Shown in pieces: positions 1-2,012 of a stretch of DNA of 7,410 nt. Location: IMG/VR virus record IMGVR_UViG_2617270946_000020, positions 1 to 7,410 of that record, one strand, 5' to 3'. The stretch comes from a virus. Taxonomy: Duplodnaviria > Heunggongvirae > Uroviricota > Caudoviricetes. The first letter of the stretch is position 1. Each line of letters begins with the position of its first letter. Both the position numbers and the translations under genes were made by a program. The notes under the pieces were generated by a model that worked only from the letters and a program-made list of their open reading frames with translations, was not told the DNA's origin and ran no database searches.

Positions 1-609
1 TCAGCCAGCAGGCCATCCGACAGCATAACTGCGGATCGCCTTCAGGTCTGTCAGCGCCTCAACCTCGGCTTTCATCTGCAACTGCCGTGTATTAATCTCC
101 ACTCCCTTCGCAAACATCGCCTGCTCTGTCGCATCTGCCAGCGCAATTATCTCCGCCGCCGTCACCGGCACCACATTATTATCCCCGTCGGTCCAGGCAA
201 AACCTTCCGGAAGACGGTTATTCTCTGCCATCAGGCGTGTCGTGCTTATCCTGGACAACGTCTTCTTGCCGTAATCCCAGTTCCTTCCGTTGAATTCCAT
301 CACGTATTCCATACTCTCCTGCACATCACGCCAGATATTAATCTCTTCCCGTTTCGCCGCCTTTGCCGCTTCCAGTACTGCTTCCGTGGCAACAAAGGCA
401 CTCACGCTTCCGTACGTTCCTGCTGTCAGCCCAGACCACAATGCTTTTCCGTGTTCTGTATTATCCGTTTCCGTTGCAGTATACGGCAGCCATACCTGTT
501 CCCCTTTTTCATTCACCGCGTCTTCAAACTGCACCTCACAGTTTATCCCGCCATATTCGTTGCTGGCTGCATTTCGTACTGCAAGAATCTCTTTTCCCTT
601 ATCCACCAT
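1..609 (-). CDS. Tail-fibre-associated protein of unknown function; possibly a tail fibre assembly/chaperone (Tfa-like) by position and size
   Basis: Open frame ending with a TGA stop at 1-3. A perfect AGGAGG Shine-Dalgarno (minus strand, about 611-618) lies in the 10 nt between the stf stop (TAG, 618-620) and ATG 609-607, which is followed by GTG 606-604 (spacing 2 nt to the ATG, 5 nt to the GTG). Product about 201 aa, similar in size to lambda Tfa (194 aa), but the canonical Tfa C-terminal motif is not evident. The frame stays open upstream to a stop at 724-726, so the ORF track reports 1..696 from a GTG. Confidence 0.5.
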   Translation of the reverse strand: MVDKGKEILAVRNAASNEYGGINCEVQFEDAVNEKGEQVWLPYTATETDNTEHGKALWSGLTAGTYGSVSAFVATEAVLEAAKAAKREEINIWRDVQESMEYVMEFNGRNWDYGKKTLSRISTTRLMAENNRLPEGFAWTDGDNNVVPVTAAEIIALADATEQAMFAKGVEINTRQLQMKAEVEALTDLKAIRSYAVGWPAG

Positions 610-617
610 GACCTCCT

Positions 618-2012
618 CTATGATATGCGCTGAAATAATCCTGCCTGTCTGATACCCGGAGATGATGTCCATAGCATCGGACCACATGCACGCCACGTGC
701 CCGGTAAACGGGTCTCCCCCACATTACCGGAAGCAACCAGGGGAGTACCATTCGAAAGGCAACATGCAGACAGTGATGAGCCGGCAATGGCTGAGCCCGG
801 TGCCATATCCCCCGAATAACTCGTCGCATAATATGCCGCAAGGACAAAAGAACCGACACCAAACAGTCCGCTGTCAGGACTTCCTGACGGTCCCTGAGGT
901 CCTGCCGGACCTGTGTCTCCCGTATCTCCCTTCGGTCCCTGTGGTCCTGCCGGGCCTGTGTCTCCCGTATCTCCCTTCGGTCCCTGTGGCCCTGCCGGGC
1001 CTGCAGCTCCCGCATCCCCTTTAGGTCCCTGTGGTCCTGCCGGGCCTGTGTCTCCCGTATCTCCCTTCGGTCCCTGCGGACCTGCCGGGCCTGTGTCTCC
1101 CGTATCTCCTTTTGGCCCCTGAGGCCCTGCCTGACCTGCGGCTCCCGTATCCCCTTTTGGCCCCTGTGGTCCTGCCGGGCCTGTGTCTCCCGTATCTCCC
1201 TTCGGCCCCTGTGGTCCTGCCGGGCCTGTGTCTCCCGTATCTCCCTTCGGTCCCTGCGGACCTGCCGGGCCTGTGTCTCCCGTATCTCCTTTTGGCCCCT
1301 GAGGCCCTGCCTGACCTGCGGCTCCCGTATCCCCTTTTGGCCCCTGTGGTCCTGCCGGGCCTGTGTCTCCCGTATCTCCCTTCGGCCCCTGTGGTCCTGC
1401 CGGGCCTGTGTCTCCCGTATCCCCTTTCGGCCCCGGCGGTCCGCCCGGGTCACCTTTATCGCCCTTCGGTCCCTGTGGACCTGTTTCTCCCCGTTCTCCC
1501 TTTGGCCCCGGCTCACCTTTTGGTCCGACCGCCCCCGTTGCCCCGGCTGGTCCCTGTGCCCCTGTGGCACCCTGTGGACCTGTGTCCCCCTTCTCGCCCG
1601 CCGGTCCCCGGGCATTCTCTGCCCGTTCCTTCGCTTCCTCTGCACTCGCCGCCGACGCTTCAGCACGCTTCAGGATTTCCGCTGCCACCGCTTCCAGCTC
1701 TGCAAGCGCTTTCGGGTAATACTGCACCTCATCCTGTTCCATCAGAAATTTATTCAGCGTTCCCGGCTCAGAATCCGCCTTCACCAGAATGTCACCCACA
1801 TACGACGGGGCGTACCCTTCCGTGTTCAGCGTCACCCGGTACCACCCCGGCTCCACATCAAAACTGTAACTGCCGGTTTCCCCCGGCTGCCCCTGCGCCA
1901 CCGTGGTGACTATCACCGTCTCACTCGTTCGCGTGGCTTTCAGCTCTATGGTGCAGTCCGGTACCGGTTTTCCTGTACCATCCTTCAGCACACCTGAAAT
2001 CTTTACTGCCAT
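618..2012 (-). CDS. stf: Side tail fibre protein with collagen-like Gly-X-Y repeat domain (lambda Stf N-terminal homology)
   Basis: N-terminus [17 protein letters not shown] matches my recollection of the lambda Stf N-terminus. It is followed by an Ala/Glu-rich coiled-coil-like segment, then roughly 200 residues of uninterrupted G-X-Y triplets ([18 protein letters not shown] and variants), then a short C-terminal domain ending ...LFQRIS. Start chosen at ATG 2012-2010, preceded by GGGGTGA; the ORF track begins two codons upstream at a GTG (2018). Confidence 0.85.
901..1440. repeat. Tandem 45-bp repeat array (about 12 units) encoding the collagen-like domain; includes two identical 180-bp higher-order copies
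   Basis: Direct reading: units beginning cctgccgggcctgtgtctcccgtatctccc... recur every 45 bp from about 901 to 1440. The sequence lines at 1021-1200 and 1201-1380 are identical except for the first 10-mer, so the block about 1036-1215 is duplicated exactly at about 1216-1395. Confidence 0.9.

Follow-up and report, generated by a model that had tools for sequence, protein, structure and literature searches.

The window (the whole 7,410-nucleotide stretch of DNA that was analysed) carries on its minus strand the side tail fibre gene stf and, directly behind it, a separate and widely conserved gene of the DUF4376 family. It is very probable that the two genes form a fibre and chaperone pair in the host-recognition module of a lambdoid prophage, working through the coupling and docking mechanism proposed below. 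A fibre gene with its partner is an ordinary arrangement and already annotated, and the result has little weight beyond correct annotation as a standard fibre plus partner gene rather than a pseudogenised fibre. The features concerned are the following:

1 to 609, minus strand: DUF4376 gene, putative intermolecular tail-fibre chaperone, 202 aa (201 aa from GTG 606), stop codon TGA at 3..1
610 to 723, minus strand: upstream extension of the DUF4376 frame overlapping the 3' end of stf, with in-frame GTG 696, ATG 687 and ATG 672; non-coding in this frame
612 to 617, minus strand: Shine-Dalgarno sequence AGGAGG abutting the stf stop, 2 nt from ATG 609 and 5 nt from GTG 606
618 to 620, minus strand: stf stop codon TAG, its position conserved relative to the LFQRIS motif
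618 to 2018, minus strand: stf, side tail fibre gene (from the ORF list, Pfam and PHROG)
621 to 887, minus strand: C-terminal non-collagen fibre tip, 89 aa (from the AF2 model and motif conservation)
888 to 1449, minus strand: tandemly repeated collagen core of stf, a 45-nt unit x 12.5 with a higher-order 180-nt unit x 3.1
2029 to 2050, minus strand: GC-rich hairpin with T-run, terminator-like, between lom and stf and just upstream of the stf start (8-bp stem with 7 GC pairs, tail TTTTTGTGGG)

The stf open reading frame encodes 466 aa when read from GTG 2018; ATG 2012 is the likely true start (464 aa), since the PfN match in Pfam starts at residue 3. The protein consists of an N-terminal PfN domain (PF08400, 4.7e-42), a short coiled-coil, approximately 240 aa of collagen Gly-X-Y repeats (PF01391, 6.8e-38) and a non-collagen C-terminal tip of 86-89 aa. 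Both of these Pfam matches are needed for assignment to the prophage side tail fibre class, and stf, which also matches the tail fiber profile phrog_366 (1e-112), has both. The PfC domain (PF06820) expected of EPclA/B-type fibres was not found in a Pfam search of stf, and the fibre was therefore grouped with the EPclC/EPclC* architectures described previously (PMC3368898). The collagen triplets stop at about residue 380 of 466, leaving 86 residues, in agreement with the approximately 85 given in the earlier note, and the tip ends with ...GTWRAC...GLFQRIS. An AF2 model of the tip, of moderate confidence (pLDDT 67.7), has six strands, with the last one at residues 91-97 of 99, and the tip is predicted to be a small all-beta domain with the terminal GLFQRIS as its last strand; Foldseek returned no meaningful match to this model. 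The copy number of the collagen repeats differs among near-identical relatives, and the fibre open frames in the relatives compared at the junction range from approximately 370 to 536 codons.

At the junction, the minus strand reads TAG (620..618), AGGAGG (617..612), TC, ATG (609..607) and GTG (606..604), leaving a gap of 8 nt between the stf stop and ATG 609. This bears out the earlier description of a stop at 618-620 followed within 10 nt by AGGAGG and ATG/GTG. GTG 606 may be the real start of the DUF4376 gene, because the 2-nt spacing between AGGAGG and ATG 609 is short. A Shine-Dalgarno sequence next to the fibre stop was seen again in homologues (TGAggagg, TAAggag). A sequence scan found no promoter-like sites across positions 1-2200 and no terminator-like site at the stf/DUF4376 junction, and the geometry of the junction suggests translational coupling of the two genes.

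The downstream protein belongs to the DUF4376 family, with a PF14301 score of 62.4 bits (cutoff 25; E 6.4e-17) over residues 81-188, and it matches phrog_1141 at 6e-80 along the full length of the 194-position profile. It had been remarked that the protein lacks the usual Tfa motif, and no match to PF02413 (Caudo_TAP/Tfa) was indeed found at E<=0.1; the motif is missing because the protein is a member of DUF4376, which is a different family. No Pfam match to Peptidase_S74 was obtained, and PDB sequences searched with the DUF4376 alignment profile gave only a chance match (E 0.2) and none to TfaMu. The AF2 model of the protein (pLDDT 93.4) begins with three strands at the N-terminus, and these lead into a helical body that carries a beta-hairpin. 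A Foldseek search of this model against the PDB returned nothing significant (E<=0.001), including among intramolecular chaperone domains and TfaMu, and its best-probability matches were prefoldin beta subunits (probability up to 0.72, not significant). The BFVD matches are small stand-alone DUF4376 proteins, the listed ones being 83-377 aa long.

Homologues of the DUF4376 protein (106 found) include none with a fibre or collagen domain. Intact ones are approximately 186-224 aa long and come from Escherichia, Citrobacter, Cronobacter, Salmonella, Klebsiella and Hafnia, with N-termini that align with M609. The window protein is built of two parts: a variable three-stranded beta domain makes up the N-terminus (residues ~1-75), and residues 76-202 form the conserved helical DUF4376 body with its beta-hairpin. 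Divergence is faster in the N-terminal third, with 41% identity in the N-terminal part versus 64% in the C-terminal body, and the C-terminal half alone matches proteins partnered with fibres whose tip is of another kind (H56/H57). A scan of genome contigs with the single DUF4376 protein gave one distant locus only, as the search patterns were too specific.

Conservation of the two-gene layout was analysed in a sample of 51 junction loci. Fibres with very different shafts end in the same way in these loci, with GTW...LFQRI[S/R/V], a stop codon, 0-20 nt and the DUF4376 start, and every intact junction examined, including those of isolated phages, comprises two separate ORFs. Isolated or inducible phages in which DUF4376 directly follows the tail fibre gene include P-EibA (orf-401/orf-191A), PhiR5_2, phiP27 (L56/L57) and phiSTEC1589, with gaps of -4 to +41 nt. 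An exhaustive phmmer search with the fibre tip gave only 7 hits, and its full-length matches finish at the C-termini of the homologues; most of what word-indexed protein searches with the tip retrieved were fragments at contig ends. The second gene encodes a stand-alone small protein right behind the fibre gene, and the separate gene of about 200 aa favoured in the earlier note is supported by its separation at all intact junctions examined and its DUF4376 membership. That note took as the sign of two genes that homologous ORFs are always separate and that the downstream protein matches a chaperone family; the homologues are separate, and the family includes experimentally required chaperones (V22, CJIE1).

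The most likely role of the DUF4376 protein, by analogy with these characterized members, is that of an intermolecular chaperone acting on the small, beta-rich tip of the fibre. In this reading, stf encodes a trimeric collagen-like side tail fibre, whose short beta-rich tip is complete and finishes at the native terminus ...GLFQRIS, and the DUF4376 gene takes the place that tfa has in lambda. In the proposed mechanism, the two genes would be co-transcribed, and ribosomes ending stf would re-initiate, or be recruited, at the abutting Shine-Dalgarno sequence. The variable N-terminal beta domain would then dock on the fibre tip, while the conserved helical body would oligomerise and thereby nucleate or register fibre trimerisation, starting at the C-terminal end; the protein might also serve as a transient cap. 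The gene boundaries, the membership in DUF4376, the conserved layout with two genes and the modular divergence are shown by the sequences. For this E. coli system we infer the coupling, the chaperone activity and the mode of docking, and no paper on the E. coli fibre/DUF4376 pair was found among the nine papers found to mention DUF4376. The prophage is a deletion remnant without J, and therefore the pair cannot currently serve virion assembly from this locus. Dependence on the chaperone is not universal, since the fibres of phage A5 also fold in the absence of the DUF4376 protein that accompanies them (PMC10579305).

A bolder version of the chaperone role, which we hold only tentatively and consider rather improbable, is that the DUF4376 protein corresponds to a C-terminal intramolecular chaperone domain that has become detached and works intermolecularly, kept on the mature tip as a releasable cap that aids host recognition, with its N-terminal beta domain co-evolving with tip and receptor. 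Slightly less probable still is a reading with two genes in which the DUF4376 protein belongs to the finished fibre as a structural part of its distal end, an adhesin or tip protein that stays bound like those of the T4 gp38 type, rather than a transient chaperone. Several databases label the family 'tail fiber protein' (PHROG, GenBank), the fast-evolving N-terminal domain would also suit receptor contact, and the 'transient cap' idea (PMC10579305) permits persistence on the fibre. However, the database names are untested annotations, and the DUF4376 members that have been tested were needed during active fibre production (PMC7289586, PMC7882524). Furthermore, the helical body is the most conserved part, a pattern typical of modules for oligomerisation or chaperone function, and the variable N-terminal part follows the type of fibre tip (H56/H57, and L007, which has a different fibre tip).

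The earlier note had also raised a fibre split by a frameshift as an alternative. On this reading, stf and the downstream ORF were once a single fibre gene, comparable to Ur-lambda stf as against orf-401/orf-314 of lambda PaPa, and either a frameshift mutation or an error in sequencing close to the G5 run (720-716) would have divided it. The DUF4376 frame is indeed open for 38 codons above ATG 609 and overlaps the stf coding sequence by 103 nt (106 nt with the stop), matching the overlap of about 100 nt described before, although its limit is 723, not 724, with closure by TAA at 726..724. The G5 run (C5 on the plus strand) is real and lies within this overlap, the tip after the collagen is short (~86 aa), and frame-loss variants of collagen-like fibres are known in O157 genomes (PMC3368898, Table 2), but there the breaks separate one domain of the fibre from another. 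Several observations speak against such a split. In near relatives, the junction differs by an indel of 1 nt (TGAGGAGGTCATG), and this difference (TAGAGGAGG versus TGAGGAGG) shifts the frame relation while both ORFs stay intact and the DUF4376 proteins are 95-97% identical. Relative to stf, the DUF4376 frame lies at -1 in the window and at +1 in loci L013-15 and L022-24, and it varies in more distant homologues; taken mod 3, the relation is 1 in some relatives and 2 in others. In L013-15, L023 and L024 the extension is open for only 21 codons above the ATG, and in L022 for only 13, with no start codon between. In addition, homologous fibres finish at the same LFQRI[S/R] motif, a fibre or collagen domain fused to DUF4376 occurs in none of the homologues, and the relatives are likewise small in PHROG and BFVD. 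The single continuous ORF that had been named as the sign of a split gene was not found among the homologues examined. A sequencing error at the G5 run is unlikely, because the sequence there is identical in seven fetched loci, IMG/VR records which possibly share source genomes (over window positions 560-900, L001, L010-L012, L019 and L025 are 100% identical and L016 is 99.7% identical, with the overlap unchanged). Counts of substitutions by codon position in the overlap (11-13 substitutions) were too few to tell the frames apart. On this comparison of sequences we regard the split as refuted and its probability as very small; the upstream opening of about 100 nt is not conserved and calls for no special explanation.

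The same overlap bears on the annotated start of the DUF4376 gene. In near-identical genomes, RefSeq/PGAP places it at the equivalent of ATG 672, giving a 672-nt CDS of 223 aa that overlaps stf by 55 nt, and this start is probably over-extended by 21 codons. A longer isoform from ATG 672 was considered and rejected, as there are relatives without any start codon above the equivalent of ATG 609 and divergent homologues begin at the aligned position.

Least probable of all, with hardly any chance of being correct, is programmed -1 frameshifting in the overlap that would yield a minor fibre-chaperone fusion beside the two separate products: the DUF4376 frame is -1 to stf and open across its last 103 nt, and fused architectures of fibre and chaperone domain exist in T5 and K1F (PMC10579305), but neither part of a programmed site, a conserved heptamer and a conserved frame relation, was found, as no X_XXY_YYZ heptamer is present in 723-618 and a stop closes the frame in the +1 loci.

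The closest known systems are those of E. coli 55989 and P-EibA, which have the same order of J, lom, a collagen-like fibre (PfN, coiled coil and Gly-X-Y repeats) and a DUF4376 gene of ~190-200 aa at the prophage end. The junction region of 55989 is 94.4% identical to the window at the nucleotide level, and its 467-aa fibre is taken to be EC55989_1078, the EPclC* fibre of PMC3368898; as in stf, the C-terminus of the EPclC/D fibres defined there is not of the PfC (PF06820) type. ORF-191A of P-EibA has only 45% identity with the window protein; the P-EibA fibre tip has the GTW...LFQRI motif in common with stf but is otherwise different. The window differs from these EPclC*-type systems in the number of collagen repeats and in that its prophage is a deletion remnant. 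The collagen-like fibres of EPclC type in E. coli 55989, O104:H4 and their relatives are accompanied by a DUF4376 partner, which should be co-expressed for the production of recombinant fibres or for the retargeting of phages and pyocins.

Experimentally, fibre chaperone function has been shown for gp27 of Alteromonas phage V22 (PMC7289586) and for the DUF4376 partner of the Campylobacter CJIE1 H-fibre (PMC7882524). These two proteins and A5 gp9 resemble the window protein in their PF14301 domain, in the position of the gene directly downstream of the fibre and in size (~195-240 aa), and the Alteromonas chaperones (PMC10579305) have the same order of elements as our AF2 model, from N-terminal strands to a helical body with a beta-hairpin. 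However, sequence relatedness to the Alteromonas and Campylobacter proteins amounts to the shared Pfam family; hosts and fibre types differ, and there is no collagen shaft in those systems. DUF4376 chaperones have been likened to the T5 pb1 and K1F endosialidase domains, which have a helical trimeric core and beta-hairpin tentacles (PMC10579305). Those domains (Peptidase_S74) are part of the fibre polypeptide and are cleaved off by autoproteolysis, whereas the DUF4376 protein of the window is encoded by a separate gene.

Lambda Tfa and Mu U (Caudo_TAP, PF02413) share with the DUF4376 protein the position after stf, a similar size and the same expected job in folding and trimerisation of the fibre C-terminus, but they are of a different family. 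Mu U is generally filed under Caudo_TAP. A different assignment is given in PMC7882524, which states that Mu U carries DUF4376. In lambda, the PfN domain of orf-401 is homologous to that of stf (PF08400), and the next ORF is likewise in another frame. Hendrix and Duda (1992) are said to have described the stf gene of lambda PaPa as split by a frameshift into orf-401 and orf-314. In lambda PaPa, the second ORF encodes the remainder of the fibre, with tfa coming after it, whereas in the window the second ORF itself occupies the tfa position and is never joined to the fibre in relatives.

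Sequence comparisons support the reading of stf, the gene of the collagen-like side tail fibre, and the ORF directly downstream as two genes. The junction, as read in the window, has the following features, all on the minus strand:

GTG 2018 (ATG 2012 is the likelier start) to TAG 620..618, minus strand, stf ORF, 466/464 aa
617..612, minus strand, AGGAGG (Shine-Dalgarno sequence), directly after the TAG and followed by TC
609..607 and 606..604, minus strand, candidate starts ATG and GTG
ATG 609 to TGA 3..1, minus strand, DUF4376 ORF, 202 aa
to 723, minus strand, upstream opening of the DUF4376 frame, closed by TAA 726..724, overlapping the stf 3' end
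696, 687 and 672, minus strand, in-frame start codons GTG, ATG and ATG in this opening
720..716, minus strand, G5 run

The earlier note's description of these features stands on direct reading, except that the frame is open to 723 rather than 724. The stf stop and the DUF4376 ATG are separated by 8 nt. The stf product contains a tail-fibre N-terminal domain (PF08400, E 4.7e-42) and collagen triple-helix repeats (PF01391, E 6.8e-38), with ~86 residues remaining once the Gly-X-Y triplets stop near residue 380.

The downstream ORF encodes a DUF4376 protein (PF14301, 62.4 bits against a gathering score of 25), which matches PHROG phrog_1141 across the entire 194-position profile (E 6e-80), and showed no match to the lambda Tfa family (PF02413) in a Pfam profile search. 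A search among 5.8 billion proteins retrieved 106 homologues from Escherichia, Citrobacter, Cronobacter, Salmonella, Klebsiella and Hafnia. Full-length homologues have 186-224 aa with PF14301 as the sole domain, and collagen or PF08400 domains are carried by none of the 106. The exceptions include the longer proteins P0001 (322 aa) and P0003 (256 aa), P0002 (220 aa, with a two-residue Met-Asn extension), P0102 (240 aa, another N-terminal domain), P0104 (PF05100 present as well) and P0106 (PF05354 without PF14301); none is a fibre fusion. The extra N-terminal parts of P0001, P0002 and P0003 join at ...YQTGRIIS, and in P0001 and P0003 a deletion joined a capsid or terminase fragment to the stf 3' end read out of frame.

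In four isolated or inducible phages, DUF4376 is a CDS of its own immediately 3' of the tail fibre gene:

P-EibA, orf-401/orf-191A, 13-nt gap
PhiR5_2, fibre/DUF4376, 16-nt gap
phiP27, L56/L57, 4-nt overlap
phiSTEC1589, fibre/DUF4376, 41-nt gap

RefSeq annotates two genes in every complete E. coli genome inspected, and the look at homologous fibres proposed in the earlier note found two ORFs in both phages and genomes. In a junction comparison of 51 fetched loci, DUF4376 starts 0-20 nt after the fibre stop, and alignments of these loci revealed that unlike shafts (collagen or not) lead to one common fibre ending, ...G(T)W...(T/G)LFQRI(S/R/V)-stop. In relatives with a 95-97% identical DUF4376 protein (L013-15, L022-24) the junction is TGAGGAGGTCATG, not TAGAGGAGGTCATG, a 1-nt difference that alters the frame relation of the ORFs and leaves both intact; there, the frame 5' of the ATG is open for just 13-21 codons and has no start codon. 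More distant homologues likewise show frame relations of 1 or 2 (mod 3), without pattern.

The separate gene of about 200 aa favoured by the earlier note is therefore borne out by the phages with a separate CDS and by the 51-locus comparison. Its alternative, a fibre split by a frameshift as in lambda PaPa stf, is refuted by the separate CDSs, the common fibre terminus, the frame relation that changes among near relatives, the closed upstream frame and the identity of the junction. A conserved programmed frameshift is likewise refuted, since the overlap has no X_XXY_YYZ slippery heptamer and the frame relation varies among relatives. A sequencing artefact is unlikely because six fetched loci match the 341 nt surrounding the junction, G5 run included, at 100% identity, and a seventh is unchanged across the overlap.

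The fibre tip is not too short, as one small tip module forms the end of many fibres preceding DUF4376 genes. An exhaustive phmmer search with an 89-aa tip query retrieved few relatives, and the full-length matches all reach the target C-terminus (165-249 of 249, 568-652 of 652, 163-194 of 194). The AF2 tip model is all-beta with moderate confidence (pLDDT 67.7) and had no significant structure match in the PDB; its last strand is predicted to be the terminal GLFQRIS, which fits a complete tip domain. Ghosh et al. (PMC3368898) showed the EPclA C-terminal domain to be a trimerisation module and classed fibres without PfC (PF06820) as EPclC/D; PF06820 was absent from the stf product in the Pfam profile search. 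E. coli 55989, whose junction region has 94.4% nucleotide identity to the window, has a fibre of 467 aa, equal to the length listed for the EPclC* example EC55989_1078 (PMC3368898).

It is highly likely that the pair represents an ordinary fibre gene with the gene of its cognate intermolecular chaperone. Once the fibre is mature, the DUF4376 protein may be released or may stay on as a cap or tip component. AF2 models this protein (pLDDT 93.4) with three N-terminal beta strands followed by a helical body that includes a beta-hairpin and, at its C-terminal end, a long helix. All 35 BFVD matches at E<=0.001 are small stand-alone phage DUF4376 or uncharacterised proteins, and the PDB gave nothing significant, the best-probability matches being prefoldin beta subunits. 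Identity among 44 homologues is 41% over the N-terminal 75 residues and 64% over the remainder, and partners of fibres with different tips (H56/H57; L007) have just the C-terminal half in common. A modular chaperone would be expected to look like this, with a variable N-terminal part reading the fibre tip and a conserved body that oligomerises. Active fibre of Alteromonas phage V22 needs gp27 (PMC7289586), and a functional H-fibre of Campylobacter CJIE1 requires the gene downstream of it (PMC7882524). A5 gp9 is dispensable; it was modelled as a trimer capping the fibre, with N-terminal strands that continue the beta sheet of the knob, and was likened to the T5 and K1F intramolecular chaperone domains (PMC10579305). 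In a simple scan, 1-2200 contained nothing promoter-like and the junction nothing terminator-like; with the 8-nt gap and the stop-adjacent Shine-Dalgarno sequence, this fits co-transcription and translational coupling of stf and DUF4376, both of which we infer.

The RefSeq/PGAP start corresponds to ATG 672, giving 223 aa and a 55-nt stf overlap (CDS in the loci L001, 6001-6672, and L052, 1962-2633). ATG 609 or GTG 606 is favoured as the real start because the N-termini of divergent homologues align with M609, the Shine-Dalgarno sequence abuts the stop and close relatives have no upstream start. The spacer after AGGAGG is 2 nt to ATG 609 and 5 nt to GTG 606, so spacing alone speaks for GTG 606 no less than for ATG 609; the products are one residue apart.

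The collagen region (888-1449) is a tandem array of 45-nt x 12.5 (180-nt x 3.1), and relatives that are nearly identical elsewhere differ in repeat copy number. The annotation of O104:H4 FDAARGOS_349 lists the fibre as an incomplete pseudogene, which may reflect misassembly of the repeats. In other prophage remnants (P0001, P0002, P0003, P0112; L004, L005), large deletions end downstream in the last ~100 nt of stf (~640-710), joining capsid E or terminase fragments to ...YQTGRIIS (out-of-frame stf 3' end) or ...LPGTWRAC, and DUF4376 is intact in each. Deletions may end here repeatedly, perhaps through microhomology to capsid E '..PAY..RII..'; alternatively, the clustering may be an ascertainment bias, as these sequences served as queries.

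The prophage around the pair is a lambdoid remnant riddled with deletions (2077-5788, minus strand). It has several in-frame gene fusions; gpW, L and K appear intact:

5788..5318, minus strand, fusion of Nu1(1-42) and gpA nuclease C-terminus
5118..4096, minus strand, fusion of portal N-half and gpFII
4265..4062, minus strand, C-terminal fragment of minor tail M
2712..2077, minus strand, fusion of tail assembly I N-terminus and Lom C-terminus, J wholly deleted

Past the terminase remnant, 5800-7410 contains:

~5800-6200, AT-rich stretch
6183-6383, plus strand, DUF3950 small protein
6856..6515, TonB_C-domain lipoprotein-like ORF
7410..7186, 74-aa ORF

The stf and DUF4376 ORFs are intact, yet from this locus alone the pair cannot contribute to virion assembly. 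Between lom and the stf start, a strong terminator-like hairpin (2029-2050, minus strand; 8-bp stem, 7 GC pairs, T-run) was observed, and expression of the pair from the late operon would therefore need read-through or antitermination.

No complete E. coli genome contains 80% or more of the window at a single location. Some part of a 2.1-kb fibre-to-DUF4376 query matched 4338 of 5426 complete E. coli genomes, and the exact junction type is present in 33 of the 5426, including 55989 and O104:H4 outbreak strains. In L053 (E. coli ST866, 1962-2570) the DUF4376 gene has split into two CDSs, of 174 nt (DUF4376) and 417 nt ('hypothetical protein'), so the partner gene decays in some prophages.

The stf-DUF4376 arrangement is already known and ordinary, since it has been described for prophage P-EibA (orf-401/orf-191A), whose layout equals that of the window, and is annotated in RefSeq. 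Unlike lambda PaPa orf-314, which is the remainder of a fibre, the DUF4376 gene is a positional, and probably also a functional, analogue of lambda tfa, occupying the equivalent position but falling outside the Tfa family.
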